Shown: positions 1-63,695 of the stretch, one piece after another
Layout of the letters: each line of letters starts with the position of its first letter
Numbering within the stretch: position 1 is the first letter of the stretch
Translations under genes and position numbers: made by a program
The notes under the pieces: model-generated
The model's input: the letters and a program-made list of their open reading frames with translations, nothing else
What the model was told of the DNA's origin: nothing
Database searches by the model: none
Source of the DNA: Raillietiella orientalis
Lineage: Eukaryota
Direction of reading: 5' to 3'
DNA: 64,000 nt
Assembly (NCBI GenBank): GCA_036172245.1
Contig: JAYWIR010000026.1
Span: forward strand, 124,001-188,000

Positions 1-350
1 GAGACGCCTCCTGGCGCATGCTTCCGCATGATGTCACGAAAATAGGGGAGGAGGAGATGTTAAGCCTCGACGAGCCTTTTAACACCGGTGAAATCCACGC
101 CGGCATTAAAAGGCTTAAGAGGCGTAAAGCTGCAGGGGAGGAAGGCTTGCCCGCGGAGTTCTTTCAAAGCTTCGCGGAAGAGTTGGCCTCCCTGTTGCTA
201 CAATTGACAGGGATAATCTGGGACGAAGGCGCTGTTGCCGCCCCGTTTCGGTCAGACAGAGTGAGGCTCCTTCTGAAGGGAAGAGACCTTAGGAAACTTA
301 GCAACTGGGGTCCGATCACGATTGTAAACATGGACGCCAAGTTGATCGCT
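1..350 (+). mobile_element. Non-LTR retrotransposon ORF2 fragment (RT N-terminal region), A-like, truncated
   Basis: Translates LSLDEPFNTGEI...KAAGEEGLPAEFF...NWGPITIVNMDAKL, homologous to ORF2 at ~8230-8575. Similarity stops abruptly at ~350. Confidence 0.9.
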
Positions 351-1135
351 GTTCCGCTACGAAATCGGTATACGGTGACGTCACGTTCGCTTAACCCGCC
401 GTCGCGCATGCGCCGACGCCGCCACCAAGTCGCGAATCGAGCGTAAGCAGCCAAGACGGAGCTTTCAGGAAAGCGACGGAAGAGCTGGTGGCCATGTTCG
501 AGCAGCAACCCAAGGCCGAGGAAATGGCGTTGAACCCATCGGCTGAGGCGAAAGGACCAGAGACTAGCGAGTCCGAAGCCGAAGACGGCAACGTTCCTTC
601 CGTCGATCTCCGAAACAGCCGGGCAGGTTGTAAGGTAGGCAACCAGAGACGCACCACTCCTACTCAGGCGGAGGAAGGAATGCGCACGGAAGACCAGGAG
701 GCGAAGTCCGCTAGGTCTCGCGACCCCTCTCCGGAAGCGACGATGCCTAAGATACACCGCCCTTGATCGACGCACAGCAAACATGCGATGCTCAAGCCGT
801 CGAAGTTAATGCACTTCTCCCGCCTCCTGAACAGGAGGCATTGATCACCGCATCATGATAAGTACACCATCGCGTGGACTCTCCTCCCACCGGCGCTTGC
901 GTGTAATCAGTAGGAACGTCAACGGATAGCGTGAAGACGGAAAAAGGAGAGGAATAGCCGTCACCTTGAGAGATTTCGATCTGGCACTCCTGTAGGAGAC
1001 ACACGTGCTCCATGCGGAAGGGGCTCAGGAAATTGAAACGATCGTAGGAGGGCGCCTCAAATGGCGAAACGGTCAAAACCACACCCGCGGTGTAGCGTTC
1101 TTCGTAAGACCAAACATCAATCAGGCGCTGCGACG
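351..1135 (+). mobile_element. Degenerate LINE fragment: ORF1 C-terminus plus start of APE endonuclease
   Basis: Low-complexity acidic ORF ends at 766. It is followed by remnants of NVNG and AQEIETIVGGRLKWRNGQNHTRGVAFFVRP, homologous to the APE N-terminus of family A. Confidence 0.75.
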
Positions 1136-1785
1136 TTTTCACCCGGTAAAGCCGGAGCCTTTATTTGAAAACTCACAGAATTTGCAGTACAAGGCCCGCT
1201 GCGGCCAATAGTTCTATAAAGCTGTCGGGTGGTCGGTGCACAGACCGACTTAACACCCCACGCCAACCAATGGGGTTGGGAAGAAAACAAACATAAAATA
1301 AACAAAAAACAAAAAGTACAAACACTTGTCAATTGGAGGGCCGGGAAGGGATCACTGCCCGTTGCGTGGAGCTTCCATCCTTTGCAGGATGCCGACGAGG
1401 TCCTAGTACATATTTCCCAGGTGGGGCCAGCAGGATGCTATTCGCAGACAGCGAGCTGCATACTCCAAGGCATCCCTTTCGTTCACATTCTCTGCTTCTT
1501 TGGATCCACTCCAAGCTGCCACAATACCTCGTACGCAGCAGAGAGCTGCTATTACAGCGGCTGGCTGCAGGGTTTCCCGCACGAAAAGGAGCATAAAAAC
1601 GTCTCTGGGAAGGCTACCTTCCAGGATCCCTAATGTGGAACCGAAACGTTCCCACAGTAACAGGAGGGCAGCACTGTAACCAAAAAGTGCGGGAGGGTTT
1701 CCCGCTGCTCCCACCGGGCACAGTTGGGCTTCAGACCTGTGTCTTTCTAGGGAGAGGAGGTGGTTTGCATTGTTCAGCGGTCTAG
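1136..1785 (-). mobile_element. Family K LINE 3' fragment (ORF2 C-terminus, 3' UTR, terminal hairpin)
   Basis: Minus-strand LWERFGSTLG...QPAAVIAALCCVRGIV...WPHLGN. Ends in AATAAA-GGCT-CCGG-CTTTA-CCGG-GTGAAAA at 1136-1165. Confidence 0.85.
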
Positions 1786-3764
1786 TTAGTGCGAAGGTAT
1801 TCGGTGATTTTGTACGGTGTGTAGGAGCGCCGGACTCCCATGGAAGAAATGCCTGAGGACACCGCGATGGAAATTGGGGGAGGAGAGGCGAATTTCTTTC
1901 CACCACCCATAAAAGTGGAAGCGTCCGCCCTCACGGAATCCGGGGCACTTGCCCCATCGGAATCGAGGGCAACCGTCCCTTCGCGATTCTTTTCGCCAGC
2001 GGCGCAAAGTTGGAGTGCCGTCGTTGCTGCACCATTCTTGGCTGCAGTAGCGGAGCAGACTGCCTACAAGGACAGCGGCTACAAACCGTCGCTGATCTAC
2101 AAGATAGGCAGTGTCTTCGACGAGAAAATTGCACGCTCCTTTGAAATGGAGCTGCAAAGACATGAATGTGAGGGAGAAAGAACTAGAGAGCCTCTCCGTC
2201 CTTAGTGGGGGGCAGCGAGTTGAGCTGACTTGCAGAGAGGCAAGTCTAGCGCAGCGCCTGCTAAACACCCCCATTACGGTGGACGGCCGCAGGATCTTCC
2301 CTGTGACGGAGGACCGCTCCGTCGTGGTCCACCTCACGGGCGTATCACTCCTAATGGACAAAACCAGCGTTCATGAGGAGTTGTCAAAACATAGTAATGT
2401 GCACGCGTATTGGGCCAAACCCAATGTCTTCCGAACGTACGGAAGACTATTCAGTGGGATGGCCGCTGACCGCGTCACACTACCGGAGAATGGTAAGTTT
2501 CCCCACAAACTAAATATAGGCGAAGAAAAAGTCGATGATTGGTACGTAAGATAGCCCAAGTATTGTGGCCATTGCGATTCTACAGGACACTTAAAAAAAC
2601 GGTGCCCTAACATCCAATGCCACTTATGTGGAAACAAGGGCCACATCCGCAAGGTGTGCCCAAGACGAGAAATTCCGGTCCCTCTCGCTGCCAAAAACGA
2701 AAAGGGGAAACGGGCGGGAGAAAAGAATACCATGAAGCAGGCCATAAGGAGCCAGATGCCAGTCCCTAAGCCATCCCAGCAAACGTCGGCTGAGAGCACT
2801 CCCGACGACGCTGGCGACGGCGAAGGCTGGCAGATGGTACAGCCCAGAAGAAAGCCCGGGAGTCCCGAACGAAGCGCGGTGAAAACAAAAACGCAGCGCG
2901 AAAAACCTTGCAGCGAAAAACTTTGCGCTTGTTTGGTAAAATTAGAGCGTGTGGGGCACTCTATGCCGCCACCGGGGGAGCAATCCCCCCTTCCCGTCCG
3001 CCGAAACCGCGACGGTCGATGGCTAATTCTCTGGGGAAACAGAGGGGGAACTGCGCTCCGCGCTCGATGCGATCGAGGAGGCCGCCTTCCAGCAGGCGGT
3101 GGAAGAACTCGCGGCAGAACTGCAAAGCTGTGAGAAGAACTCCCGGAAAGGCTTACGAAGGCTGCCGCGAGGAAGGCTCCGGATGCAGGTGAGGCCAAAC
3201 AGAATGCCGGAAGTGCGTCCTCCTCAACGGAGGCGCCACCAAAGATGACAGGACGCAAGTCCCAGAATCCCAGGAGGCGCATACGCATCAAGGAGGATGA
3301 ACTGGCACCCGAGGGGGAAGCCGGCAGCGTGGGAGGCGAGGGTGGGAATCCCTCATTTCTCCACACCGTGCAGCTGGCGACCCCCATGGAGGAGGAAGTA
3401 CAGGTGGCTGGAACCCCCCTTTCTCTGCACGGCCCTGACGAAGACAAAGCCCCCATAGAGGAGGGAGAAGCGATGCGCGACGCACCCCCTCCTCCTAGCG
3501 TCCCGCCCGACAAGGTGGCGGGAGCCCCATTGCCACTTTCCCAGGATTAACACCTAGGCTCGCCTGTAGCTGTAGGATCCGCATAGCCTCCTGGAACGTC
3601 AACGGGCTGCGCGACGACGGCAACAGGCGGGATCCGGCCGACACCCTGCGCGACTTCGACCTGGCGCTCCTGCAGGAGATCCACGTGATCACCGCGGAGA
3701 ACGCCCAGAAGATCGAGAGCATCTCAGGGGGTCGTCTGTTTTGGCAATGTGGCGCTCGCAACAC
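1786..3764 (+). mobile_element. Family F LINE 5' part: frameshifted ORF1 (1840-3550) and APE start
   Basis: ORF1 is homologous to family A ORF1 (GYKPSLIYKIG, CCHC knuckles CGHC..GH...C and CHLC...GH...C). TAACA junction at 3548-3552, then IASWNVNG...LLQEIH. Confidence 0.9.
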
Positions 3765-3892
3765 CTGAAGGAGACGTTGATCAGCGCATTCCTCCAGCAA
3801 GAGCGCGAGTAGGAAAGAAGAGAGGGTTGGAGGTTCATGCGACCCAAAAGCTCCAGCAGTAGCTTCTGGTCCACGCAGTCGAACGCCTTGTG
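3765..3892 (-). mobile_element. RT fragment of a host LINE, starting at HKAFDCV
   Basis: Minus-strand HKAFDCVDQKLLLELLGRM...WRNALINVSF. Confidence 0.85.
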
Positions 3893-5265
3893 TGCTCCAG
3901 GGTGGACGCGTTTTCTCGGTGCTCCTCGTGCCAGGAAGTCTCCCTCAGTGCAAGCGTCGTGTGGTTCGGTGGTCAATCAGGCAGCGATGCCTGACGCGAC
4001 CATTAGAGATGGCCAGGGGGCAGCGGAAACGCCGCCCTTAGAGGCGATGGAGAGCCAGGGGGCGGCGGCAACGTCGTCCCCAGAGGCGATGGAGGTGGGG
4101 GCATCCGCCCCCACAGAATCAGGCCCCGCTGCAGCGCGGGCGTGGAGCGCCGTTGTGTCGGCGCCATCGCCTGCAGCCGCGGCGGAATAGTCGGCCTATG
4201 TGGAGGAGGGGTACAACCCCTCATTGTTCCACAAGGTAGACAATTTATATTCTTTAGAGAGCGCGCGCGCCTTCTCGAAGGGCATGCGCGCTCTCGATTT
4301 GAAAGAGGAGCTCAGCGCTATGACCATCCGCAGCGGGGGTCAGTACGTTGAGGTCATCAGCAAACAAGCAGAGCTGACCCAACGACTGCTTAAAACCCCC
4401 GTGGTGATGGGGACGCGCAGGCTCCTCCCTATTACGGCGGACCGCAGCATGGTGGTCCACCTGTTAGGTGTTACCGCGCGGATGCGCAAGGAACAGGTTC
4501 GCGCTGCGGTGGAGAAATACGGAACGGTCAACGCGCAGTGGACAAAAGTTAGTCCTTCCGAGGACTACAAGGGGCTGCAACACGGCTTCACTGCTGCGCG
4601 CGTGACCGTTCGGAACGGCTGCACTCTTTTCCACAAACTGGTGGTCGAAGGCGAAACCGTCGACCTCTGGTATGTGGGGAAGCCAAAATACTGCGGCTTC
4701 TGCAATACGTCGGGTCACCTCAAAAAGAAGTGTCCCAATGTGCAGTGCCAAGTATGCGGAACCATGGGACACACGAGGGAGGTGTGCTCTAGAGCAGCAG
4801 TGCGGGTGGTTTCCAAGAGAAACCTTAAAAAACGTGCCCGGCTTCTGCAGAAAAGGCTGACGGCGAAAGCTGCCGCGAAGGCTGTGCCACCCGCGCCCAA
4901 GGCCCAGGCCGCACCCGAGAACACGGCGAACAACGCCGAACAAGTCGAGGGAACAAGCCAGGAGCCTGGGTGGCAGGTGGCTACGGCCAAAAAATCAAAG
5001 AAGGAGAGGAGGATAAAGAAAAAGCTCGCGCACCGCCAGAAAAAACAGCAGGCAAGCGAGCAAATTCAAGAATGCAGCGTTGTCGTCGAGCGTATTCCCG
5101 ACCGCTGCGAAAAAGAACTCGCCGCTACCGACGAACACCCCTCTGTTGACTCTGTCAACAGCGAGGGGAGCGAGCCGGCGGCGGCGTCCGTCATCGACAC
5201 CACCATCGATGACGTAGCCTTCGCGCGAGACGCGGAGGAGCTGGCAGCCTCGTTGCAGCCAGAAC
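3893..5265 (+). mobile_element. Family G LINE, copy 1 (5' UTR and ORF1 N-terminal part, interrupted by family A)
   Basis: 5' GGACGCGTTTT at 3904. ORF1 has two CCHC knuckles (CGFCNTSGHLKKKC, CQVCGTMGHTREVC). Homologous to 30779-32145 and 47013-48183. Confidence 0.9.
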
Positions 5266-5369
5266 CCTCCAAGGCCAGTAGGAGGACGTGTTTTTCCTTC
5301 ACTTCCCAAAGAGTAGTAGGAAAGCGCTTTTTCTTCTGTGTGGTGTTTTGTGTACATCGTCGGTGTCCA

Positions 5370-7118
5370 ATGGCCACGACGCCAGAGGACACCGCGATGG
5401 AGGTGGGAGTGGGGGAGGCTAGTTCGCCCCCACAGCCTACTGGAGCAGGGGCAGCCGCCCCGGATTCATCCCCGGCCACGCCGAGGACATGGAGCGCCAT
5501 GGTGGCCGCGCCCAGCGCAGAAGCCATGGCGGAGATGGCCGCATACAAGGCCTCCGGGTACAAGCCTTCGCTTGTGTACCAGGTAGGCAACTTGTTCGAC
5601 GGCCAGACAGCGCGCGCCTTCAGCAAAGCGTTGAAGGACGCGAATGTCACAGAGAAGGATCTGGACGGCCTCTCCGTCCTCAGCGGCGGGCAGCGGGTCG
5701 AAGTGGTCTGCAAAGATGTCACCTTGGCTCACCGCCTTATCCATGCGCCGCTGAACGTAGACGGCCGCAAGATCCTGCCAGTATCTATGGACCGCTCCGT
5801 GGTGGTCCACATGACTGGCATCACCAGCCGCATGACGCGGTCAGCGGTTGGTGAGGAATTACGGAAGTACGGTGAGGTGCACGCACTGTGGCCGAAACCC
5901 TCCATTTTCGACGGCTTCGATACCCTTTTTGGTGGGCAGGCTGCAGCGCGGGTCAGCGTACGGGAGAATTGTGGGCTTCCCCACAAACTACAGGTGGCGC
6001 AAGAAAACGTCGACCTGTGGTATGTAGGGAAACCCCGGTATTACGGGCATTGTGATACCGTGGGACACCTACGTAAAAGGTGTCCCAATATACAATGCCA
6101 TTTGTGCGGGGAGCGGGGCCACGTTCGGCGCGTGTGTCCCAAACGCCCCACCCCGGTTCCCCCTGCCGCGAAAAAAGCGCAGGGGAAACGTGCTTCAATG
6201 GTCTCTAGACCTAAAGTAGAAAAGGGCCAGCACAAGCTGCCAACACCTCAACCTCCGGCGCGTAAGCCGGAGGATAAACCTTCTGAAACGGTGGAAGGCG
6301 AAGAGGGATAGCAGCTTGTAGAGGCCAGAAAGCAGAGGAAACTCCCACCCGCGAAGAGCAAAGAGCGCAAGACGGCCGGTGAGCCGAAAAAACCCGGTCC
6401 GCGCTCGAAAACTTTGCGCGAGTGCACGGTGGCACTGGAACGAATCGTCGTTCCCGAGATTGCCACCTGGAGCGTCGATCCTCCCCTTGCCGTTTCCGCT
6501 GCACCCGAGGCTCGCGACGGCGAACCCTCTGTTTACACAGAGGGTGAGCCGCGCGACATAGCGGCGGTCGAAGCCGCGGACGCCGCGTTCGCGCAGGCGG
6601 CGGAGGAGCTCGCGGTCACGCTGGCCGAGCGTGAGAACCCCTCGCGCAAGGCCGTGCGAAGGCCGGCCCTGGCGAGGAAGGCCCCCAAAGGTGAGTTAGA
6701 CCTGGGGACCGGAAGCACATCCTTCTCCTCGGAGGCACCCCCCAGGAAGTCGGGACGCAAGTCCCAGAAGCCCAGGAGGCGCCTCCACTCCACCAGCGAG
6801 GAGAAGACGGAAGCCGTCGCCAGCGTGGGAAATTTGGAGGAGGAATTCCCACGCTCGGAAGCCGTCGATGCGGCCACCCCCATGGAGGAGGGTGAACAAT
6901 GGGGTCAAGTCCCCCCTGCAGGCGCCGACCCTGAACAGCCCGCCCCCATGGAGGAGGGTGAACAGGTAGGCGCGACTCCACCTGCGGGTAATCCGGCCGA
7001 CGCGCCGGCACAGATGGAGGAGGGGGACCAGGTGCCTTCAGCACCTGACCCCCCTGCTCCACCTAGCGTCCCGCCCCAGCAGGTGGCGGACGCCGCACTG
7101 CCATCTTCCCAGGAGTAA
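5370..7118 (+). pseudogene. Family A ORF1 (gag-like, two CCHC zinc knuckles), one in-frame TAG at 6309
   Basis: Colinear with ORF 28923-30545(-), where the same codon is TGG. Knuckles (C/Y)GHCDTVGHLRKRC and CHLCGERGHVRRVC. Confidence 0.9.
6878..7060 (+). repeat. Three 66-bp tandem repeats encoding P/QMEEG(E/D)Q...P in the ORF1 tail
   Basis: ATGGAGGAGGG recurs at 6882, 6948 and 7014. Also present in the copy at ~28980-29165(-). Confidence 0.85.
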
Positions 7119-10100
7119 CACCTGGGCTCGCCAGTCGCCGTCGGATTCGCGCGGCCTGTTGGAATGTCAACGGGCTGCGCGACGACGGTAACAGGCGAGA
7201 TACGGCCGACACCCTGCGTGAGCTCGACCTGGCCCTGCTGCAGGAGATCCACGTGATCACCGCGGCAGACGCCCAGGAGATCGAGACGATCGCGGGGGGT
7301 CGGCTGTATTGCCGGTGCGGCCTCCGCAACACCTGCGGGGTCGCGTTCTTCGTGAAGCCGGCCATCGACGCTGCCGTGAAGGGCGTGCGCTTCGATGACG
7401 ACGGTCGGGTCGGTCAGCTGACTCTCGGCTGGTCGGACTCGATCGATCTGATCGTCACGAATGTGTACGCCCAAACCGGTCAAAAGGGATACAGCAACCG
7501 TACCAAGCTGCTTGAATCCTTGAAGCGCGACTGGCTGGCGAACACGAGCGTGCGGAATGCTCACCTGATAGCGGGAGATTTCAATCTCCACCTGCTAACA
7601 GGTGAGCCGGAAACACAGGTGAACGCGATGAACGAGTTGTGCGCCGCCATGCGTGCGCGCAACTTGTTTGCAGGTGAGAGGGGAATGGTCCGCAGCATCG
7701 ACCACGTCTTCCTCGACGCTGACCTGTGTTCACGGGTCGGCAAACGGGGGAGGGTTGCGTCAACGTTGCCGGACCCTTCCCGGTTAATTTTCGAGATGCG
7801 GCCTCGCGACAAAGGACCGCCATCCAGGGACTGGCGTCTGCCAGAGGACTGGACACGACTCTCAGGTGCGAAGGAACACCTTCGCGAAAACCTGAGAGGC
7901 GTCACGCTCCGGAATCTCCAAGACTGGGACCTTTTTAAGGAATCGGTCCGGGAATTCTGCGAGCAGTTCCCCCTGGGCCGCCTGCCCTCCGGATTCGGCG
8001 AGGGTCCTCGCAAGCATCGGGCCTATTTACAGTCCCGTAGGTACGAGCGAACCCCTAACTTCCGTCGCCTGGCCGAGTACCGCGCCGGGGCCGAACGCCA
8101 AGCCTGGCAATCCGGGTCGGCCAGCTTGCTGGACGACCAGGGCCGGGAATGTACGTCCCCGGCGTCGGTATGGCATCTCGTGCGGAGTTATTATTCCTCC
8201 CTTTACGCCAGGGCGCCCCCGGATCAAGATGCCTCTCGGCTCTTGCATCCCGATGGTGCCCCGGCAATAGGGGAGGAGGAGTCGTTAAGCCTCGATGAGC
8301 CTTTTACCACCGGCGAAATTCTCGCCGGTATCAAAAGGCTCAAGAGGCGGAAAGCTCCAGGGGAAGACGGCTTGCCCGCGGAGTTTTATCAGAGCTTCGC
8401 GGAAGAGCTGGCACCCCTGCTGCTTCAGCTGACAAGGCTGATCCGAGACGAATGCGAAGTTCCCGCCTCGTTTCGGTCAGCCAGAGTGAGGCTCCCTCCG
8501 AAAGGGGGAGACCTTAGGAATTTGAACAACTGGCGTTCGATCACGATTGTGAATACGGACGCCAAGTTGGTTGCCGGGCTATGGGCTTCGCGTCTGGGGC
8601 AGATGGCAGAATCCATTATTAGCCCGGAGCAGACATATGCTGTTCCCGGGCGAAGTATGGATGCCAACCTCTTCTTCGCGAGCACGTGGATGCACGCGCA
8701 GAGGTGTCAAAAGGAAGGAAAAGGAAAAATCGGCAACCCCACTTTGGGGCCGCCAGCAGGGCAGGGAATGGACTCCCGGGCGGGGAAGGGGGCCTTAGCG
8801 CTCGCAGTCGATCTCCATAAGGCGTTCGACTGTGTTGACCAGGGGCTTTTGTTGGAGCTCCTGGGTCGCATGGGCTTCCCACCCTCCTTGATCAACTACC
8901 TGCGCTCCTGCTGGCGCCATGCGATAATTTCCGTCTCTTTCAGCGGTCAGAAGGTGCATGGCGTGCCGGTTCGGCGGGGCATCAGGCAGGGAGATAGCCT
9001 GAGTCCCCTGCTCTTCAGCACCTACTTTGAGTTGGTGCTGAGAGCCTACAGAGTGACTTTGGCCTCCTTGCCTAGCTCGTGTCCCGGCACGCCCGCCGTA
9101 GCAGCCTATGCCGACGACCTTCTGCTCCGGTTACCTATCTCCACCCCGGCGAAGGCGGTCGGAGACTTCTTCGATCTGCTCAGCCGTGGGACCGGACTGC
9201 AGGTCAACAGGGCGAAGTCGTCGGTGGTGCCAGTAGGTGCGGCGTGGGCAGGGCAGCAGGACTGGGTCCGTCTGGGGATCCCCACGGCGAGGTGCCTCAA
9301 GTACCTTGGTGTGCCGTTGGGTGACTACTCCCCTGCGGAAGCGTGGTCCAGCTGTCTTCAAAAACTCGAAACGGTGATCGGCCCGTTCCTGGAAGGCAAG
9401 TTTCACTTGCCGGAACGGGCCGCGGTTTGGAACGCCTTCGCGGCCCCCATCCTCCGCCCCTTGCTTTCTGTTTGCCCCGCCCCCAGAGAATGCAAAAAGA
9501 GGACGAAGGACCTCCTCCGCATCGCCCTTTGGGGCAAGGGGAGGCCCCGAGTCCCTCTGCAGGACTTGTGCGCTCCGCGTCGGGACGGCGGCCTTGGCCT
9601 CCTGACGCTGGAGCGCGGGGAAATCCAGCTGCGGTGGCGAACCCTCGCCATCGCAGCGAAGATGTGGAGCACCCCTTGGTGCGTTCCGGCCCGCCACCTC
9701 GCTAGGCGTGTGTCCCGATGCGAAGGACTCGCGTCGTTTCTTCTGTGCCCTGGCCGGAAGATCCGAAGATGCGGCCTTATGCTCGGACGCATAGCAACCT
9801 TGGCGAAGACGAACGGTTGGATGGTTTGTGGCCCCGCCAACTCCTCCGCCTGGTTAGGGGAGTCTGCTGGCACATGGGCTAAGCTGAACCGGAGGAGCGA
9901 AAACCACATGAACTGCCTGCGAATCGGCCCATACGCCAACCGCACCCTGCGGGAAATACTGGAATTTCCTCGGAGTCGCAGGTGGGCGTTGACGACCCCC
10001 CTTGCTACGGCGATGCCCTACCTCCTGAGGGCGCTTCAGGATTGCCAGAAGCCGAGGTGGCAAGTCACCGGCCAGATCGCAGGCAGGGAGAAGGTGTTAA

Positions 10101-10711
10101 GCGGCTGGACCACAGGAGAACTGGCGGACGCCACGACCCCGAGCGTCCAGCCGCGTGGACTAATGAGATGGGGCGAGCTGCTCGCCATCCCTACGGATGT
10201 GCTGAAGTGGCCCCCGGTATTAAAGGACTCCAGGATCCTGCCCCTTAAGTGGCAAGAGTCGGCGTTGCTTTTGTTGCACTGGGGTCTACCCTGCAACGCG
10301 CGCCGCTTCCACTGGACGAGGGGAGCTGTGGATCCTGCGTGTGCCAGGTGCGGCTAGCGGGAGTCGCTTCCCCACCTAATTGTGGATTGTGCTGCCATCC
10401 GACCCCTCTGGGAACGGTTCGGGGCGACCCTAGGTCTCCCTACGGGCAGCACCCCCAGAGACGTTCTTCGGCCCCTCTTCGTGAAGGACGCACTGCAGCC
10501 AGCCGCAGCCATCGCAGCCTTGTGCTGTGTCCGTGGCATCGTGGCAGCATGGAGCGACGCCAATAACGAAGGAGTGGGTCCACACGCGAGGGATGTCGTC
10601 CCATACGCCCAACGCTTCATGCGGAGAGCTGCCGGATGGCCCCAAGTGGGGAATATACGGACGGAACTCAAGGGCTTCCTTCAACGGATGGGCCCTCCTC
10701 ACAGCGTTTAG
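7118..10711 (+). pseudogene. Family A ORF2: APE endonuclease, reverse transcriptase, CCHC finger (~1197 codons; one TAG at 10355)
   Basis: Motifs WNVNG, LQEIH, GDFN, IDH, KAPGEDG, DLHKAFD, GIRQGDSLSP, YADD, KYLG, CARCG..ESLPHLIVDC. Confidence 0.95.
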
Positions 10712-10933
10712 TGATCCCTTCCCTGCCCTCCAACTTCTTTTTGTCTGTTTATGTTTTTTATTTTTCTTTTTGTTTTATCCCCATCCCCCTTTGCTGCTGA
10801 GGAACGCTACGCTGGGCTGCGTCCCGGCGTCCCGGCAGGTCCAGTGCATATGGCCGTGAGCGGAGCCTTGTACCGCGGATGTAGAGTTGTTTTTTTTTGA
10901 AAAAAAAAAGCCCCGGGCGTACCCGGGTGTAAA

Positions 10934-12116: not shown

Positions 12117-12122
12117 AAATCG

Positions 12123-37490: not shown

Positions 37491-37492
37491 TA

Positions 37493-43066: not shown

Positions 43067-44562
43067 ACTTAGCGATCGCGAGAGGCGCTGCCTCTTCCAG
43101 ATCGGTGTGTTCGCGCGTTGCCTTTGCGACCGTTGGTGGCACTGCTGTAGCGGTTGTGCTCGCCCTAGCAGTTTGTACCTTGGCCGCAGTAGGCGCTGCG
43201 TCCGCGCGCGAGGACTGCGGGTTTGCCGGCTGATTCTTCGCGGCACTCGGCGCCTGGGGCTCCTTGGCCGCGGTTGCTTCAGACGGCGCGGTGTTCTTTG
43301 CCCGCGGGCACGTTTTTCCCGTATCGGGCGAACGACCGCATTCCGCGCCGCTCGTCGAGGCCTTGGTACGAGGCTTCGCGGTAGTGATGCCGACAGTAGG
43401 AGGCTTTTTGACCTTCGGCACAATGTCTCCTGCATTCAACAACTGTCTGCGAGGTCTCGTAGAAAGGTCGCATTCTTCGCGAGCTTCCTTCGGGTAGATA
43501 GCCGGAGGCTTAGCCGACCTAAGCCGCGACGAGTTTTTTTGTGTTTTTCACCCGTTCTTTGTGGGGGCGAGAAACAGTTTTCTGCACGTGCGTGGGCGCG
43601 GTTTTCGCAACGCTTTTCGAAGCTTTGATGTTTCTTTCTCTCGATTCGCGGCGCTTATTCCGCGATGCGGAACGCGATTCGTTCCTGCGCTTTTCGTTTT
43701 TTAAAAGGAGCTCCGGGCACGTCCCCTTAGTGTGCCCGTGCTCGTGGCAGTGACGGCAAGCGGCCGAGGGACACTCCGTAATGCGGTGACCCTCCTGCCC
43801 GCATTCCGCGCATACACGGGTTTGCCCGGCAAACCACAGGCGGACGGTCATCCCATCCACCTGCAGTCGCGTGGGCATTGCCCGGCGATCCGCCATCGTC
43901 ACTCGCGCCTGCGCGAGCCCGCTGTGGTGGTCTTCGAACCCTTCAGCAGGGTTTGGCAGCCTCCAAATCGCGTGGACGGTAGCGAATTTTTCAAGGGCCT
44001 CCACGACCTGGCGGTCCGAAAGGCCCTTACACACTCCACTGAGCCGGACAACGAACGACTGGTCCGTTGTGACAGGGAGTATTTCCTGCCCACGAATGAG
44101 CAGCGGCGTGTGCAGCAAACGCTGCGTAAGGAGATCGTCCTTACTGGACACCTCCCAGTAGCCGCACCCACTCATGGGCATGATGGACTCCAGTTGGCCT
44201 TTTTGAACTCCAATCCGTTGGAGTTCCTGGCCAAACTCGCGTCCAACCCGCTCAGGCATAAGGACACTTATCTTTTACCTAAGTGCAGGCGTGTAGCCAT
44301 TTGCTACATACGCCTGAAGCTCAGGGCTGTCGGGCGAAGGTTCCATCGTAGCCGCGAGGGCAGCGACCCGGGCGAATGTCCTCGCCGTCGGCGAGGACAG
44401 AGGCTCCTTGCTAGCAGCCGAAGCAGCCATCTCAGGAGCAGGTGGCGTTCCCTTCTTGCGGCTGATGTTCTTCTTTGCTCCCATTGCAGCACAGAAGCAC
44501 AGCAGAACAAAAACACACAAGAGCCAATCTACCGCGGAGCGACGCAAAAGCACGTCCGTACG
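43067..44562 (-). mobile_element. Family I LINE 5' part (ORF1 from ATG 44484, disrupted)
   Basis: GGACGTGCTTTT at 44557, AYVANGYTPALR, knuckles CAECGQEGHRITEC and CRHCHEHGHTKGTC. Confidence 0.88.
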
Positions 44563-47012
44563 CGACCGTCGCTGATGCGTGAGACGGGAGATGTTCCCCC
44601 TTCTTTCCGCTCTGCAAAGGTGCGGCTCCTGCCGAAAGGCGGTGATTTGCGTCACCTCAGCAACTGGCGCCCGATCACATTGGTGAATTCGGACGTCAAG
44701 TTGTTCTCCAGGCTATGGGTAGCGCGCCTGGGGAGAATCGCGGAGTCCTTGGTAAGTCCGGAGCAGACGTATGCTGTTCCTGGGCGGTCCATGGACGCGA
44801 ATCTCTTCTTCGCGCGAACATGGTTCGAGTTGCAGCAGCGCGTGGCGCAGCAGAGCCAGGCAGCCGAAATCGCCGCTGCCAAAGGTAAGCGGCGGTGTTC
44901 AAGGCACGATGGAACGCCGGGAGCCTTAGCGGTCGCCGTCGATCTCTGCAAAGCGTTCGACAGCGTAAACCAGGACCTCCTTCTGGAGCTTCTGGGACGC
45001 CTAGGCCTCCCGACGCACCTCATCGCCTACTTGCGCTCCTGCTGGCGCCACGCGTTATGCTGTATCCCTTTCAGCGGGCGCCACGTGTACGGCATTCTTA
45101 TACGGCGGGGTATCAGGAAGGAAGACAGCTTAAGACCCCTGCTCTTCAGCATCTTCTTTGAGTTGGTGCAGAGGGCGTACACGCTGACGCTGTCCAACCT
45201 GCGGAGCTTCTTCCCTGGAGCGCCGGCCGTGGCCGCCTATGCTGACGACCTTCTCCTGCTGCTGCCCATGTCCACCCCGACGTCCAGGCTCGAGGACTTC
45301 TTCGTGCTCATTCGTTGGGGAGCGGGCCTGAGCGTCAACAGGCCGAAATCCACCGTTGTATCGGTTGGCTCTGCGTTAGAGGGGCAGTCCAACTGGATCC
45401 ACCTGGGGATACCCACGGGCAGGTACTTGAAGTACGTCGGCGTTTCATTGGGATAATTGTTTTGCCGAAGCGTGGTCGCATTGACTTCACAAGGCAGAAA
45501 CTGCTTTGGGCCTGTTCCAAGGTCGCTGGTTCCACCTGCCAAAGCAAGCCTTTGTGTGGAACATTTTCGTTGCCCCCCTCCTCCGTCCCCTCTTTTTTGT
45601 TTGTCCCCCTCCCTACTCGGCTTAGCGCCGGGCGCAACGCCTGTTGCGGAACGCCCTGTGGGGACCTGCCAGGTCCAGGATACGCCTGAAGGACTTGGCG
45701 GCTCCTCGGCGGGATGCAGGATTGGGCATCCTGACGCTGGAGCGGATCGGACTGCTAGTGCAGTTCCGCATGCTGGCACTTTGTGCGCAGCTCTGGACTA
45801 CTCCCTGGTGTGCTCCAGCGCGGCTGCTGCTGCGGCGCTGCACGGGTGGCGACGGACTACGTTCGTTGCATCTGCGCACGGAGCGCGCCCAGAGAGAATT
45901 CGGCTTCCCTTTGAAGCAGCTCGCCACGCTTCTGGGGAAGCATGAGTGGATCTCCTGCCGGCCGACGAACTTCAACGCCTGGAGGCAGGAAGCCTTATCG
46001 TCCTGGGCAGCGCAACAGGATGTGTCCCGTTTGGAACTCCGTTGCGTGAAACCTTCCCCATACTGTCCAGTGGGGGAGGTGCTGGAAGACCAGGACCAGT
46101 GGACACGCCTAGCCGCTACGCCACTCGCCGAAGCACTGTGTGCACTGATGGTGCGAGATGACAGTGACCTGCCGGCGAGGTGAGAGATCACTTGCGAAAT
46201 CGCAGGCGAAACCCTGCTGCTGGGAGGCTGGCGGACTTGCGAAGTGGCAGACGCTGCCACACCTCGCCTTCGTGCAAAGGGGCTTCTCCGGTGGAGTGAA
46301 CTCCTCGGGGTGCCCACCGATGAACTTGTGGTCCCTTCTGCGTGTTTAGACGCGACTCTCTTCCCCCTTCGGTGGAAACAGGACCCTTTTCTGCTGATGC
46401 ATTGGGGTTTGTACTGCAACCGGCGGGCGCACCTGATTTCTGGGTGAGTTGCGTCCCCGAACTGTGCCCAATGCGGAGCGGTGGAATCGCTTCCGCATTT
46501 TCTGTTTGAGTGCGGTGCCCTCCAGGAGCTGTGGCAGCGGCTGTCTTCAGCGCTCCTGCACCCTGGACACACCGCACTGGATTCGATGCGCCGCTTCTAC
46601 ACGCGTGGCGGTCTTTCTCTTGGAGCGATCGTCTCAATCATCTGCTGCGTGCGCGCCATTGTCAGGGCCCGCCACGTATTGAGATGTGAGCAGTCCCAAC
46701 ATCGGTCCACGACACCGCAGCCTGCAACCTGCAAATGGTTTCCGGGTGGCCATTAGATTGGAGCAGAAGTGAGGACGGAGATCGGCGGCATTCACCGCCG
46801 GTTCTGAGAATAGGAACGGTGAGACTGCATACCCCTGTCCCCGCCCTCCCACCCAATTTATTTATTTATTGTGTCACCCCCTCCCGTTCCGAACTCTCAG
46901 TGTACCCGCCCTGCGTTCTGGGAAATCTACTCCCCATATTCTGTTCCCTTGCCTGAGAACACAGTTCGCACTTGATATTATGAATAAACGTCCCGGCGCA
47001 ACCGGGTTATGA
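44563..47012 (+). mobile_element. Family J LINE 3' half, copy 1
   Basis: RLLPKGGD, DLCKAFD, YADD. 3' AATAAACGTCCCGGCGCAACCGGGTTATGA at 46983-47012. Confidence 0.9.
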
Positions 47013-48183: not shown

Positions 48184-50386
48184 CGCAAGGCGGTCGACTG
48201 CGTGAACCAGGGGCTTTTCTTGGAACTTCTGGAATGCCTTGGATTTTCGGCGCATCTCCTGCTTTACTTGCGCGCTTGCTGGCGCCACGCGCTAACCTGT
48301 ATTTCTTTCAGCGGCTGCCGCGTGTACGGTATTCCTGTGCGCAGGGGCATTCGGCAAGTTGATAGCTTAAGCCCGTTACTCTTTGGCATCTTCTTTGAGT
48401 TGGTGCTAAGAGCATACAGGCTGACGCTGTCTTACTTGCCAAGCTCCTGCCCGGGAACGCCTGCCGTGGCCGCCTACGCTGATGACCTGCTTCTTCTGCT
48501 CCCCATGTCCACCCCGGCGTCCAGTGTCGAGGATTTCTTCGACCTGGTTCGTCGTGGAGCGTGCGTGAGCGTGAACAGAGAGAAGAGCGTGGTCGTACCG
48601 GTGGGTGCGTCGTAAGAGGGGCAGTCAGACTGGATCCGCCTGGGGATCCCCAAGGGAGGGAACTTTAAGTACCTTGGCGTTTCGTTGGGCGCTCTCGGCG
48701 CAGCCAAAGCGTGGTCGGACTGCCTTCAGAAAGCAGAGCTGGCCGTCAGCCCGTTCATCAATGGCAAGTTCACCTTGCAGGAACGGGCGACTATTTGGAA
48801 CACCTTTGTGGCCCCCCTCCTCCGTCCTCTCTTTTTTGTTTTGAACCTCCCCTATGCGGCAAAACAGCGGGCTAAACTCCTGCTTTGGAACGCGCTCAGG
48901 GGTCCGGCGAGATCCAGGATCCGCCTTAAAGACTTGGCTGCTCCACGTCGGGATGTTGGTTTGGGTATCCTGACAATGGAGCGAATCGGTCTGCAGGTGC
49001 AGTTCCGACTGCTGGCACTGTGTGCCCAGCTGTTGACATCCCCCCTGTGTGTGCCTGCACGCATTCTACTGCGGAGATGCGCCGGCAGCGGAGTACTGCT
49101 CTCGCTTTTGCCGGGCACCCAATACAGGAAGCGAGGTTTTGGGCTTCCATTGCGGCAGTTGACCGCACTTCTGGAAGCCCATTCGTGGATCTCCTGCCGC
49201 CCAATGAACTTCGAAGCTTGGCGGCAGCAGTCTGTTGAATCCTGGGCAGCGTTCCATGGAATGCGCCCTGAAGATCTTCGCCCACTGCGCCATCTTCTTC
49301 CGCGATCTTTGGAAGAAGTACTGCAGGAAGAGGTGAAGTTTTCTACCCTGGCTTCCACGCCTCTTGCCGCACCGCTGTCTGCCTTCAGGGCAAGAAACGA
49401 CAGTTGCCAACCGGCAAGGTGAGAGGTTTTTTGCACGATAGCGGGGAAAACAAAACTCCTTGGCGCCTGGAAGACGAGTGATTTGGCGGACGCCGCCACT
49501 CCTCGTTGTACTTCAAAGGGACTCCTCCGGTTGGAAGAAGAACTTGCTGTCACCCCCGAAGAACTTGTAGTTCCTCCACAGTGTGTTAAAGTTCGCTGCT
49601 CTTCCTTGCTTGGAAACAAGCCGTGCTGCTTTTCGTTCACTGGGGTTTTCAGTGCAACGAGCGATGGCATTGAGACTCCGGGGGACTTGCATCTGCCAAC
49701 TGCGTTCGGTGCGGTTCGACGGAGTCGATCCCGCACCTACTTCGGGACTGCAATGTCCTACAAGGACCGTCGCGTAGGCTGTCAACAGCACTAATGCATC
49801 CCGTGGACACCGCAAGAGACTTGCTGCGACGACTCTTCATGCCGAGCGGGCTGTCCCTAAGCGCAAGGATTGCAACCATCGGTTGCATACGCGCGATAGT
49901 TTCCGTCCGACAGGCGTTGGTTATGAACGGGCAGCACCAAGAGGTAATCAGAAAAGCATCCTTCTACATGGAAGCAGTTGCTAGATGGCCTCATTTGACA
50001 GAGGAGTCAAAAAGGAATCTCGCCGAAATACATCGCCGGTTTACACACGCTCAGCAGCGGCCAACCCGGTGATCATTGCCCTACCCTCCATAAACTAATT
50101 TTGTATTTTCTTTCTACATTCGCGTCCCCATAGGCTCCGGAACATTTCAGGTGCTCCCCGTTTAAATCCCCGTGAGTACGGAGCCTAACCAAAGATCCGT
50201 TACCCTTCCCTCCAGTTTTTGATTTTTGTTTGTTATCCCCTTATTCCTCCCACGTTGCAAGCGGTTTGTTTACCAGGCCTGCGTGCCGGTAATTTCTCTA
50301 TGTTTCCTGTCATTCTGTTGGTTGGGGACATTGTCCCTGACCAGTTTATTATTATCAATAAACGCCCCGGCGTGAACGGGTGACAA
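48184..50386 (+). mobile_element. Family C 3' half, copy 3 (starts at RT KA.DCV)
   Basis: Homologous to 12497-14699 including the 3' UTR. Terminal AATAAACGCCCCGGCGTGAACGGGTGACAA. Confidence 0.92.
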
Positions 50387-51485
50387 ACTTCAATCACCAT
50401 CTGCTAACAGGTGAGCCTGAAACACAAGTAAACGCGATGAACGAGTTGTGCGCCGCCATGCGTGCGCGTCATCTTTTTCAGTGGACGCCCCTTTACCCAT
50501 GGAGGAGGAGGACCAGGTGCCTTCAGCACCTGACCCTCCCCATCCACCTAGCGTCCCGCCATAACAGGTGGCGGACGCCGCACTGCCATCTTCCCAGGAG
50601 TAACACCTGGGCTCGCCTGTCGCCGTCGGATTCGCGCGGCCTGTTGGAACGTCAACGGGCTGCGCAAGGACGGCAACAGACGAGATACTGCCTACACCCT
50701 GCGTGACTTCGACCTGGCCCTGCTGCAGGAGATTCACGTGATCACCGCGGCAGACGTCCAGGAGATCGAGACGATCGCGGGGGGTCGGCTGTATTGGCAA
50801 TGCGGCATGCGCAACACCTGCGGTGTCGCGTTCTTCGTGAAGCCGGCCATCGACGCTGCTGTGAAGGGCGTGCGCTTCGATGACGACGGTCGGGACGGTC
50901 AGCTGATTCTCAGCTGGTCCGACTCTATCGATCTGATCGTCACGAATGCGTACGCCCCCAGCGGGAAAAAGGGATACAGCGACCGCACCAGGTTGCTGGA
51001 ATCCCTGAAGCGCGAATGGCTGGCCGATACGAAAGTGCGGAAGGCACACCTGATAGCTGGGGACTTCAATCTCCGTCTGCTGTCAGGTCAGCCCGAAGCG
51101 CAAGAACGCACGGCCAACGAGTTGTGCGCTGCCATGCGCACGCGCAAATTCTTGGCGGACGTAGAGGGAATGGACCACAGCATAGACCACGTCTTCCTGG
51201 ATGCTGACCTGTGCTCGCGGGTCGGCAAACGGGGGAAAGTTGCGTCGACGCTGTCGGACCATTCCCGGTTAATCGCAGAGGTATGCCCGCGCGACAAAGG
51301 ACCCCCGTCCAGGGCCTGACGGCTGCCTGGGGACTGGATGCGGCTCTCTGGTGCGAAGGAACACCTACGCCAATTCCTGAGAGGCGTCACCCTCCGGAAT
51401 ATCGCTGACTGGGACCTTTTTAAGGAATCGGTCCGTGAGTTCTGCGAGGAGTTCCCCTTGCACCGCCTGCCCCCCGGATTTGGGG
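50387..51485 (+). mobile_element. A-type APE stub (50387-~50480) fused to A-like ORF1 end and APE (~50480-51485)
   Basis: FNHHLLTGEPETQVNAMN, then ...LPSSQE* TAACA at 50601, WNVNG, GDFN, IDH, SDH. Ends at LPPGFG. Confidence 0.88.
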
Positions 51486-52724
51486 TTATCACCCGGGTAC
51501 GCCCGGGGCGTTTATTTATAAACTCCACATGCGTAGTACGAGGCCCCACCACGGCCGTAAACACAGGACCTGTCGGGACACCGAGACGCAGCCCGGCGTG
51601 GCACTCCCCGACAGCGAAAGGGGATGAGGGAAGAAAAACAAAAAGAAAAATAAAGAAATAAACATACAAAAAGAGTTTAGAGGGCAGGATAGGGATCACT
51701 GGACGCTGTGAGGAGGGCCCATCCTTTGAAGGAAGCCCTCGAGGTCTCTCCGCATATTTCCCAGATGGGGCCATCGAGCAGCTATCCGCAAGAAGCGTAC
51801 TGCATACTGGATGACGTCCCTCTCGTTTTCGTCCACATCTTCGTTACTGGCGTTGCTCCAGGCCTCCACGATGCCTCGGACACAGCACAAGGCTGCGATG
51901 GCTGCGGCTGGCTGCAGTGCGTCCTTCACGAAGAGGGGCCGAAGAACGTCTCTGGGGGTGCTGCCCGTAGGGAGACCTAGGGTCGCCCCGAACCGTTCCC
52001 AGAAGGGTCGGATGGCAGCACAATCCACAATAAGGTGGGGAAGCGACTCCCGCTCCCCGCACCTGGCACACGCAGAATCCACAGCTCCCGTGGTCCAGTG
52101 GAAGCGGCGCGCGTTGCAGGGTAGACCCCAGTGCAACAGGAGCAACGCCGACTCTTGCCACTTGAGGGGCAGGATCCTGGATTCATTCATCACCGGGGGC
52201 CACTTCAGCTCATCCCTGGGGATGGCGAGCAGCTCGCCCCATCTTGATAATCCTCGCGGCTGGACGCTCGGGGTCGTGGCGTCGGCCAGTTCTCCTGTTG
52301 TCCAGGCGCTAATCAACTTCTCCCGTCCCTCGATGCAGCAGGAGACTTGCCACCTTTGGGTCCGGCTGCTGTGAAGTGCCCTCCTCAGGAAGGGCAGCGC
52401 CGTGGCTAGGTAGGTCGTCTCCGCCCACATGCATCTTGCTTAACTCTCCAGGAGATTCCCCAGCGTGCAGCGGGCATAGGGGCTGCATCGGAGACGATTC
52501 CACGTCTTGTGGCTCCTCTGGTTTACCACTGCCCACGTTCCAATATTCTCCTCCAGCCAGGCGGGGGAGTTGGCGGGGCAGAAATCCATCCAGCTGTTCT
52601 CCTTGGCCAATGTTGCCATGCGCCCGAGCAGTAGGCCGCATCTTCGCATCTTCGGGCCTGGGCACCGAAGAAAAGACGCGAGTCCATCGCACCGGGACAC
52701 ACGGCTGGCCAGGAGGCGGGTCGG
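51486..52724 (-). mobile_element. Family H 3' fragment, copy 2
   Basis: Homologous to 33013-34247. Terminal AATAAACGCCCCGGGCGTACCCGGGTGATAA. Confidence 0.9.
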
Positions 52725-53084
52725 TTGCAATAGAATTGTACGTAAATTCACGTTTCACTAACAATATTGCGAAGCATCAAATGTTTCAAAAAACGAGTGC
52801 AAACTTAGCATTAATAAAACCTATGCAATTTCTTGATAGCGACAAAGCAAAAACTCTTACCTTGGCCAACCAATAGCTCTCTAGTTAACTATGGCAGCTG
52901 CGAGCCAACAGAGAAAAATCCGGATCTCCGCAACACTAAATTACCATACTATTTTTCCGTGTACAGCTAGAGTACGTATATATGTATCACAAAACGGTGA
53001 ATGAGCACAAGTCGTGGCGAGAAAAATTTCTAATACTACTTGAACTTCTCAACGGCGGAGCTACGCTCAAACACGTCTTGCCGC
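52725..53084 (-). mobile_element. AT-rich insert, putative 5' end of another element (M)
   Basis: AGACGTGTTTG on the minus strand at 53078, next to the junction with J RT. No recognisable protein motif. Confidence 0.4.
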
Positions 53085-54924
53085 GCAGGCTGACGCTGGC
53101 CAACCTGCGGAGCTTCTTCCCTGGAGCGCCGGCCGTGACCGCCTATGCTGACGACCTACTTCTCCTGTTGCCCATGTCCACCCCGGCGTCCAGGCTCGAA
53201 GACTTCTTCGACCTCATTCGTCGGGGAGCTGCCGTGAGCGCCAACAGGCCGAAATCCACCGTTGTATCGGTTGGCTCTGCGTTAGAGGGGCAGTCCGACT
53301 GGATCCACCTGGGGATACCCACGGGCAGGTACTTTAAGTACCTTGGCGTTCCATTGGGATAATTGTTTTGCCGAAGCGTGGTCGCATTGCCTTCACAAGG
53401 CAGAAACTGCTTTGGGCCTGTTCCAAGGTCGCTGGTTCCACCTGCCAAAGCAAGCCTTTGTGTGGAACATTTTCGTTGCCCCCCTCCTCCGTCCCCTCTT
53501 TTTTGTTTGTCCCCCTCCCTACTCGGCTTAGCGCCGGGCGCAACGCTCGTTGCGGAACGCCCTGTGGGGACCTGCCAGGTCCAGGATACGCCTGAAGGAC
53601 TTGGCGGCTCCTCGGCGGGATGCAGGATTGGGCATCCTGACGCTGGAGCGGATCGGACTGCTAGTGCAGTTCCGCATGCTGGCACTTTGTGCGCAGCTCT
53701 GGACTACTCCCTGGTGTGCTCCAGCGCGGCTGCTGCTGCGGCGCTGCACGGGTGGCGACGGACTACGTTCGTTGCATCTGCGCACGGAGCGCGCCCAGAG
53801 AGAATTCGGCTTCCCTTTGAAGCAGCTCGCCACGCTTCTGGGGAAGCATGAGTGGATCTCCTGCCGGCCGACGAACTTCAACGCCTGGAGGCAGGAAGCC
53901 TTATCGTCCTGGGCAGCGCAACAGGATGTGTCCCGTTTGGAACTCCGTTGCGTGAAACCTTCCCCATACTGTCCAGTGGGGGAGGTGCTGGAAGACCAGG
54001 ACCAGTGGACACGCCTAGCCGCTACGCCACTCGCCGAAGCACTGTGTGCACTGATGGTGCGAGATGACAGTGACCTGCCGGCGAGGTGAGAGATCACTTG
54101 CGAAATCGCAGGCGAAACCCTGCTGCTGGGAGGCTGGCGGACTTGCGAAGTGGCAGACGCTGCCACACCTCGCCTTCGTGCAAAGGGGCTTCTCCGGTGG
54201 AGTGAACTCCTCGGGGTGCCCACCGAAGAACTTGTGGTCCCTTCTGCGTGCTTGGACGCGACTGTATTTCCCCTTCGGTGGAAGCAGGACGCATTTCTGC
54301 TGGTGCATTGGGGTCTGTGCTGCAACCAGCGCGCGCACCTGGTTTCCGGGGCAGTTGCGTCCGCGTACTGTGCAACATGCAGAGCGGTGGAATCGCTTCC
54401 GCATTTGCTGTTTCAATGCGGTGCCCTCCAGGAGCTGTGGCGGCGGCTGTCTTCAGCGCTCCTGCACCCTGGACACACCGCACTGGATTGGATGCGCCGC
54501 TTCTTCACGGGGTGCGGTCTATCTCTTGGAGCGGTCGTCGCAATCATCTGCTTCGTCCGCGCCATTTTTCAGGGCCCGCCACGTATCGCAGATGCGAGCG
54601 GTCCCAACATCTGTCCCCGACACTGCAGCCTGCAGCCTGCAACTAGCTGCAGGGGGGTCACACCTTAACACAGAAGTGAGGACGGAGATTGCCGGCATTC
54701 ACCGCCGGTTCTGAGAATAGGAACGGCTGAAACAGATGACCCCTGTCCTCAAACTTCTACTATATTTCCTTATTTAATTGCCCCTCCCTGCTGCTGTTCA
54801 GAACTCTCAGTGTGCCTGACCGGCGTCTGGGGAACCCTCCTCCAAATCTTCTGTTCCCCTTGCCTGGGAACGCAGTTCCCAGATGATCTGCAAAAGCAAA
54901 TGTCCCAGCGCAACCGGGTAACAT
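53085..54924 (+). mobile_element. Family J 3' part, copy 2
   Basis: Homologous to ~45180-47012. Degenerate terminus AAATGTCCCAGCGCAACCGGGTAACAT. Confidence 0.9.
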
Positions 54925-55188
54925 GCGAAGACGCCTGTCTCATGGGCGCACCTCGAGCACGATCCGGTCATGGTCCGGCAGTTCCGACGGTAACTTGCCG
55001 CGCCTGTGCACGCGTGAGCATAGATGCTGGTCAAGAAACACGTGATCTATGCTGTTGGCCATTTCCGCATCTCCCGCGAACAAGTTGCGCGTGTGCATCT
55101 CTGAGCACAGCTCGTTAACGCGGTCCCGAACTGTGTCAGGCGCACCTGACATCAGGCGAAGGTTAAAGTCGCCTGCGATCAGGTGCTC
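54925..55188 (-). mobile_element. APE fragment, last LINE piece of the block
   Basis: HLIAGDFNLRL...SIDHVFLD...LPDHDRIVLEVRP. Confidence 0.88.
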
Positions 55189-63627: not shown

Positions 63628-63695
63628 GTGCCATTGCAAATCAAGTATTCATAATTAAAATGTTTATAAAAATATATTTTTATACTCTGACATAA

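Follow-up and report, generated by a model that had tools for sequence, protein, structure and literature searches.

The first 55,188 nucleotides of a 64,000-nucleotide stretch of DNA from Raillietiella orientalis (assembly GCA_036172245.1, contig JAYWIR010000026.1, positions 124,001 to 188,000 of the forward strand; hereafter the window) are a nest of GC-rich retrotransposons from the class lacking long terminal repeats (non-LTR), which carry an APE endonuclease and a reverse transcriptase (RT) and are stacked up to five levels deep. Most probably, this nest was built by a guild of long interspersed elements (LINEs), each family of which integrates at its own short string in the coding regions of other families. 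Its members are no fewer than five related families (A, C, G, H and E), and single junctions suggest that two further families, P and Q, are also members. The first-pass annotation of this DNA had claimed that junctions between such families recur at the same nucleotide in different host copies, and inspection at the nucleotide level upheld the claim for all four classes of junction (C in A, G in the RT codons of H-type and C elements, A in G, and H in J-type and A-like elements). Multiple independent junctions at one nucleotide and in one orientation, within elements of ~5.5 kb, are far beyond chance.

Regarding the composition of the window, the GC content is 55-63% from position 1 to ~55.2 kb and falls to 37-40% (AT-rich) from 58.5 kb onward. 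The GC-rich part is crowded, on both strands, with fragments of open reading frame 2 (ORF2), which encodes the APE and RT domains, and with ORF1s bearing CCHC knuckles. The limit first drawn for the nest, position 55188, stood, and a fragment of family N forms its outer edge. Pfam searches detected Exo_endo_phos and RVT_1 in ORF2 of A, C and M, the combination of APE and RT found in the sequence-specific APE-type non-LTR class; zf-CCHC was detected in the 4191-6311 frame, barely over the cut-off (21.3 vs 20.8 bits), and in ORF1 of M, with sub-threshold matches elsewhere. One or more CCHC zinc knuckles in ORF1 are a feature of the Tx1 clade, and the zf-CCHC matches agree with it. The nearest solved relative of A1 ORF2 (7067-10357) in the PDB is human L1 ORF2p (E 5.6e-47), and a protein search with A ORF2 returned nine relatives, mostly unnamed, one of which is close (67% over 56%). 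As classified by their predicted proteins, the elements are L1/Tx1-like non-LTR retrotransposons. A1 ORF2 is fully open (1096 aa) and the three target sites within it are unoccupied, while A1 ORF1 contains a single in-frame stop at 6309-6311.

The individual pieces were resolved by self-comparison, by tblastn against one reference and by best-hit segmentation, and their coordinates are collected in Table 1. Family A is represented by the full-length A1, by A2, which lies on the minus strand and is divided by C2, and by the two parts of A3. Family C consists of the full-length C2 together with C1 and C3; G consists of the two parts of G2 together with G1 and G3; and H and E have two pieces each. 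J, K, N, P and Q are single pieces, and there is in addition a distant LINE, M, which lies outside the targeting guild as far as seen. Nucleotide identity among different families is ~66-71%, reaching 84% between H and A, and A looks like the youngest family and may have been active recently. At the 5' terminus, all GC-rich families have a GGACGTGTTTT(T)C motif in common, whose 11 matches comprise 8 element starts, 2 internal copies and 1 further copy on the minus strand at 58205-58193, past the end of the nest. The start of P was located by eye. The 3' ends of all GC-rich families are likewise alike, consisting of AATAAACG, a 5-6-bp GC hairpin and then 4-7 bases, with no A run at the junction in any of the 11 3' ends of the window. 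A terminal hairpin formed in 6/6 folded 3' ends, one per family. The hairpin energies are barely better than those of shuffled sequences (z -2.8 to +0.4), and it is conservation of position, not energy, that speaks for the hairpin. Every one of the 11 3' ends is situated in LINE DNA.

The C insertions lie in the GDFN codons of the A-type APE domain. All three C 3' ends (14699; 22548, minus strand; 50387) terminate in ...GGGTGA(T/C)AA, after which comes A(T/C)TTCAATC(T/A)CC, corresponding to the DFN codons of this domain, so that the target in sense orientation reads GGAGATTTCAAT^CTCC. In C2 (22548-28455), the only full-length C, the 5' end lies against ...GGGAGATTTCAAT, and the element is bounded by an 8-bp target duplication, ATTTCAAT. 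The C target GGAGATTTCAATCTCC is a near-palindrome with two mismatches to its own reverse complement, and the 8-bp stagger would place both nicks after AAT^CTCC on the two strands. The G insertions lie antisense in the RT domain, at DL|HKAFD, as had been annotated: all three G 5' ends (3893; 32145 and 48183, minus strand) are preceded by ...GTCGA(A/C)CGCCTTG(T/C)G, the HKAFD codons in reverse complement, and the cut lies precisely between DL and H. The antisense target is GCCTTGTG^GAGATCGAC and is found in H-type and C elements; one of the three copies lies within C, as G3 (47013-48183) adjoins C3 (48184-50387).

The A insertions lie in the tail of G ORF1, where the A 5' ends at 5267 and 30778 follow ...GCCAGAAC and the 3' end at 19198 is succeeded by CCTCCTAGGCTGG. 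The sense target is AGAAC-CCTCC^TAGG, and A2 carries a 5-bp duplication, CCTCC. In addition, the A1 3' end at 10938 is directly joined to a second complete A 5' end, and this A1-A3 head-to-tail tandem is the pattern expected if one site were struck twice. Both H 3' ends (34248; 51485, minus strand) read ...CCCGGGTGATAAC, after which stand the LPPGFG codons in reverse complement, placing the target antisense, directly after these codons, in J-type and A-like elements. In summary of the 3' junctions in this one window, a single target nucleotide is used by 3/3 for C, 2/2 for H and 2/2 for A (one into G and one into the tandem A). Complete insertions with a duplication are one each for C (C2, 8 bp) and A (A2, 5 bp), and G and H each lack one junction. 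The target strings occur, within the 64 kb, only at homologous LINE sites. Coding motifs of sister elements had been proposed as the targets, which holds for GDFN, HKAFD and LPPGFG, whereas the A target is a poorly conserved ORF1 tail.

Two families, G and C, differ from their targets in their own homologous sequences. A peptide scan of the window located 7 GDFN, 9 HKAFD-like and 7 LPxGFG-like sites. The own site of G, GACTTGCGTAAAGCATTCGAC, differs from its target, GATCTCCACAAGGCGTTCGAC, at 7/21 letters; agreement with the target is 20-21/21 letters in A, C and H and 18/21 in E, the target in A1 and A2 being one base off. The own site of C is AAC^GTCC, against the target AAT^CTCC. These differences, seen in one copy per family, would fit self-avoidance. 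Further variation of a target was found in one public sequencing run, X1, whose contigs were placed on 14501-34500 at >=85% likeness. An X1 contig joins 19188 to 30784 and represents a G with an empty A site, in which the target core departs from the occupied lineage at 8/14 letters, although the adjoining 17-19 nt on either side match it exactly; this G keeps ORF1 open, and the reconstructed occupied form contains an in-frame TAG. This single contig may represent a target-escape variant. As 548 contigs of X1 were placed, 43 of them at >=99% identity, the families are multi-copy in this run.

The independence of the recurrent insertions was assessed by comparing the identity of the invader part with that of the host part across each pair of junctions. 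For G, the invader and host identities are 91.6% and 81.1% (127 nt) between 3892 and 32146 (p 6e-4), 92.0% and 68.9% between 32146 and 48184 (p 1e-33), and 91.2% and 68.8% between 3892 and 48184 (p 5e-11), the host at 48184 being C. The corresponding values are 90.6% and 67.5% for H at 34248 and 51485 (p 1e-38), 96.6% and 91.2% for A in G at 5266 and 30779 (p 1e-11), and 96.8% and 94.3% for C1 and C2 and the A elements that contain them (p 3e-4). The closest pair of A hosts is A1 with A2, at 96.2% and 96.1% identity in two regions, and either is 92-95% identical to A3, giving the tree ((A1,A2),A3); C is present in A2 and A3 and absent from A1. Congruent host and invader trees had been named in advance as the outcome that would overturn the proposal, and the tree of the A hosts proved to conflict with the distribution of C. 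Because neither equal divergence nor congruence is seen, the repeats are independent events instead of copies of a single insertion. To judge by these divergences, the independence of the G and H classes is beyond doubt.

The alternative that best survives supposes a single origin for each junction type, the recurrences having been copied by segmental duplication or by composite retrotransposition (e.g., A carrying C). It could draw on the large inverted similarities of the window (3765-7586 to 32273-28455, and 12124-15040 to 25123-22207), on the unbroken 96% alignment of C1 plus flank with C2 plus flank, and on the position of A3, which carries C and occupies A's own target, as a composite would. 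However, invader and host divergence differ significantly in every class, G and H have each entered hosts of separate families (identities of 69% and 67.5%), an outcome that duplication cannot yield, and the topology ((A1,A2),A3) conflicts with the presence of C in A2 and A3 alone. A single origin is therefore regarded as unlikely. A preference of the elements for LINE-rich chromatin or breaks, with exact positions set by microhomology or by switching of the RNA template, would also be expected to leave 11/11 3' ends in LINE DNA and would suit the E insertions, whose targets are non-homologous. Such a preference does not give single-nucleotide recurrence across host families; moreover, template switching predicts same-sense chimeras lacking duplications, whereas the G, H and E insertions are antisense and C has an 8-bp duplication, and the 3' terminus of H shows no visible microhomology to either of its flanks. 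We consider this explanation very unlikely. Partial assembly artefact, in which repeats of 80-97% identity were mis-joined to form false junctions, is scarcely credible even for a highly repetitive region with several breakpoints that insertion leaves unexplained, as mis-joins arise within shared sequence and not at exact element termini beside unrelated families, C2 is flanked by a target duplication, and independent short-read contigs of X1 cross both C2 junctions, a 3755-nt contig covering C2 and extending 29 nt into the A flank at 28455 and another beginning 18 nt within the A flank at 22547. Among the joints listed, X1 lends weak support to the junctions.

Several observations weigh against site-specific mutual targeting as the full account of the nest. 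Each class has 2-3 junctions, all from one assembled window of 64 kb, and the window contains no canonical G 3' junction. C is the weakest class, as its invader and host identities differ modestly, and the contrast in A-host topology is also modest (p ~0.02). Perfect G targets in C1 and C2 (12504, 24743) are empty, as are near-matching C targets in J and A-like2, and the two targets of E are non-homologous sites. Deletions or rearrangements are required at 3765 (K vs H-like), at 12116/12124 (A3 vs C1, with an 8-nt filler), at ~50487, and at a 361-nt AT-rich patch (52725-53085) between the 5'-truncated ends of H2 and E2. Finally, the 5' flank of G2 is canonical (H residue 584) but its 3' flank is antisense A3 residue 284, which is not one simple insertion. 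At this 3' junction (15043/15044), the uninterrupted A1 reads CAGTCTTG^GAGATTCC, a near-cognate of CCTTGTG^GAGATCGAC that has TG^GAGAT in common with the canonical G site, the near-cognate string being CAGTCTTGGAGATTCC. The flanks of G2 could derive from one event, in which a canonical site and a near-cognate one were both cut and ~900 nt of mosaic host were lost, or from recombination between two G copies; both are possible.

Two other readings of the breakpoints were considered and rejected. One took 3893-10938 as a single element with a duplicated ORF1 and a 5'-truncated tandem. The two ORF1 modules are just ~40% alike, in copy 2 the A 3' end is followed by the G ORF1 tail and G ORF2, and an X1 contig links the two G halves with no A between them. 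The other took copies 1 and 2 as an inverted segmental duplication, for which the divergence is too uneven (flank 81%, G 91%, A 96.6%).

The arrows between families extend beyond the three-way cycle originally drawn. A in G (30778/19198), G in C (48184) and C in A (28455/22547) are all present in the window, but G also invades H-type elements, J-type and A-like elements are invaded by H, and E, P and Q add arrows. The whole is thereby a directed network instead of a clean cycle of three. The deepest stack consists of J, invaded by H, then G2, then A2, then C2. The E 3' ends adjoin antisense LINE coding DNA, namely G ORF1 at 47013 and N ORF2 residue 249 at 54926; the flanks in these two cases, ACGACGACGCTG and CGAAGACGCCTG, are alike in a CGAMGACGC-like string, which hints at a short-motif specificity of E. 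The Q 3' end (1136) adjoins antisense ORF2 of a J-like piece, and the P 5' end (44557) adjoins antisense E1, so P may be another site-specific invader. A target shared by the P and C1 breakpoints was also considered and rejected: the 5' limits of E1 and C1 lie near ORF2 residues 455-464 but ~17-20 nt apart. Rock-paper-scissors dynamics, the use of competitors as safe havens and the inactivation of competitors may be read into this network, in which the invaded copies are physically disrupted. From this one window, neither a rock-paper-scissors dynamic nor a genome-wide rule is supported as demonstrated.

APE-type LINEs nick their target and prime reverse transcription from the nick, and in sequence-specific lineages the endonuclease sets the site, as outlined in two reports (PMC4494074; PMC1919474), one of which concerns the specificity of the R1Bm endonuclease (PMC1919474), where it is established. 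By the mechanism proposed here, each family would use target-primed reverse transcription to enter a short DNA sequence peculiar to it, its APE endonuclease recognizing a string of ~10-16 bp and its 3' hairpin serving as a putative recognition element for the RT. Specificity borne by the endonuclease is also established for Tx1L. Repeated insertion would bury older elements beneath younger ones, J first and then H, G, A and C, and the splitting of invaded ORFs would inactivate the copies. A benefit to the elements or to the host may be supposed.

Families of the Tx1 clade are the closest known parallel. Two studies describe a preference for other transposons, including Tx1L of Xenopus laevis into Tx1D, the crocodilian Tx1-Mar into Mariner-N4_AMi, Tx1-9_AMi into Harbinger, and Tx1-8_Crp and Tx1-4_AMi into long terminal repeat (LTR) retrotransposons (PMC4494074; PMC6719617). 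The Tx1 clade and the present elements are alike in being APE-type LINEs that prefer one defined spot within a different transposable element, the endonuclease being credited with the specificity; they are unlike in that the targets described for Tx1 families comprise microsatellites, small RNA genes, LTR retrotransposons and DNA transposons, whereas here the target is the coding sequence of sister LINEs, and several families target one another, a closed loop included. Zepp, an L1-clade LINE of green algae, targets its own copies (PMC8226300). The arrays described there consist of 5'-truncated 3' ends of its own copies, whereas the present junctions involve different families at fixed codon positions and many elements are full-length. 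Self-targeting of the Zepp kind was not seen in the window, where the nested junctions are all between different families and the sole same-family contact is the A1-A3 tandem. Zepp has poly(A) tails, whereas the elements here are devoid of poly(A).

R1 and R2, which are specific for rDNA, and other sequence-specific LINEs resemble the present elements in the exactness of their 3' junctions, in tandem insertion at one site and in their independence of poly(A). Their target duplications or deletions are short and constant, and a short duplication is seen here in one complete insertion each of C and A. Their targets, by contrast, are multicopy genes of the host and not other retrotransposons. Tandem insertions are known for Utopia (PMC4640811). 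In homing endonuclease genes and inteins, the nuclease recognizes codons of conserved catalytic sites, which are hard for the target to change. The present case is alike by analogy, as GDFN belongs to the catalytic motifs of APE and KAFD to those of RT; it is unlike in that homing is a DNA process, not target-primed reverse transcription, and the homing target is a host gene, not a rival mobile element. A search of full-text literature, with Repbase Reports and subscription journals outside it, gave no report in which several families of LINEs insert into one another's coding motifs, and reciprocal targeting of such precision among sister LINEs seems not to have been described before. When metagenomes were scanned for the motif of the 3' terminus, 24 loci emerged, which are chance matches, as 0/24 had blastn or tblastn similarity to the LINEs of the window.

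Table 1. Elements and fragments resolved in the nest, in order along the window (aa, amino acid; UTR, untranslated region).
Feature	Position	Strand	Evidence
A/H-like LINE ORF2 fragment (residues ~388-503), cut at window start	1..350	+	tblastn 72% aa to A ORF2; blastn 82% to A1
J-like ORF2 fragment (residues ~20-105), host of Q	820..1135	+	tblastn, segmentation
Q, 3' part of a further family; 3' end ...CCGGGTGAAAA adjoins antisense ORF2 of J-like piece	1136..1722	-	segmentation, hairpin fold
K, 5' part of a further family (ORF1 and ORF2 residues 1-89), broken at 3765	1750..3765	+	tblastn, segmentation
H-like RT fragment (residues 584-631), host flank of G1	3765..3892	-	81% identity to H flank at 32146
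G1, 5' part (5' UTR and N-terminal part of ORF1), split by A1	3893..5266	+	90% to G2
A1, full-length A; ORF2 7067-10357, APE+RT; GDFN, LPSGFG and HKAFD sites empty	5267..10938	+	
A3 5' part, second A with full 5' end, head-to-tail after A1	10939..12116	+	
C1, 3' 2.6 kb of C; joined to A3 via 8-nt filler (deletion junction)	12124..14699	+	
A3 continued (A''), ORF2 residues 171-284; begins within GDFN codons, ended by G2 3' end	14700..15043	+	
G2 3' part: ORF1 C-terminus, degenerate ORF2, 3' UTR, hairpin	15044..19197	-	run X1 contig bridges 19188 to 30784
A2 3' part (GDFN codons to 3' end)	19198..22547	-	
C2, full-length C (5908 nt) within A2, 8-bp duplication ATTTCAAT on each side	22548..28455	-	X1 contigs enter both flanks (18, 29 nt)
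A2 5' part	28456..30778	-	
G2 5' part	30779..32145	-	
H, from RT residue 584 through its 3' end; invades J, harbours G2	32146..34248	+	
J, from its 5' end through ORF1 and into ORF2 (residues 1-311), where H interrupts it after LPPGFG	34249..36875	-	
M, distant LINE with APE+RT (27% aa to A ORF2), lower in GC; own CCHC-knuckle ORF1	37400..43000	+	
P, 5' part of a further family (ORF1); 5' end motif adjoins antisense E1	43594..44557	-	
E1, ORF2 residue ~455 to 3' end; 3' end adjoins antisense G3 ORF1	44558..47012	+	
G3, 5' 1.2 kb of G, within C3	47013..48183	-	
C3, RT residue 585 to 3' end; host of G3, invader of A fragment	48184..50387	+	
A fragment, begins within GDFN codons (~90 nt)	50388..50486	+	
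A-like2, ORF1 end and ORF2 residues 1-311 (87% to A1); cut by H2 after LPPGFG	50487..51484	+	
H2, 3' 1.24 kb of H (90% to H)	51485..52724	-	
E2, 3' 1.8 kb of E (92% to E1); 3' end adjoins antisense N ORF2	53086..54925	+	
N, piece of a further family (ORF2 residues 166-249) at the outer edge of the nest	54926..55188	-	

Outside the listed elements, the patch at 52725-53085 resembles host DNA. The DNA past the end of the nest (55189-58460) is GC-rich, shows no similarity to LINE proteins and may be a non-autonomous or degenerate relative. Exons of a gene for a membrane protein of the dCache/VWA type (alpha2delta/CACHD1-like) lie at 60000-63650, ~5 kb off the nest edge. The best relatives in the exon search are dCache/VWA proteins of just 34-35% identity, which marks the organism as poorly sampled.

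A more far-reaching reading than the guild itself can be offered tentatively, as somewhat short of an even chance: the endonucleases of the guild may have evolved to recognize long sites in the coding sequence of their rivals, two of them in catalytic-motif codons (GDFN and KAFD), so that the families kill one another in a looped network, with their own motifs recoded and escape variants perhaps evolving, in a homing-like arms race. The parallel with homing endonucleases predicts the signatures of such a race, namely recoded self sites and escape variants. If true, the competition between elements would be written into their endonuclease specificities, and 'safe-haven' targeting would be extended from host multicopy genes and unrelated transposons to sister LINEs. 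It would also explain how nests made of LINEs only can grow beside genes and not hit them, the host gene here being ~5 kb away. The nest would further offer APE endonucleases that share one scaffold but differ in their long specificities, as a series found in nature; five or more closely related enzymes recognizing strings of ~10-16 bp would be a rare series for the determinants of LINE specificity, and LINE target specificity is a current question for programmable gene insertion.

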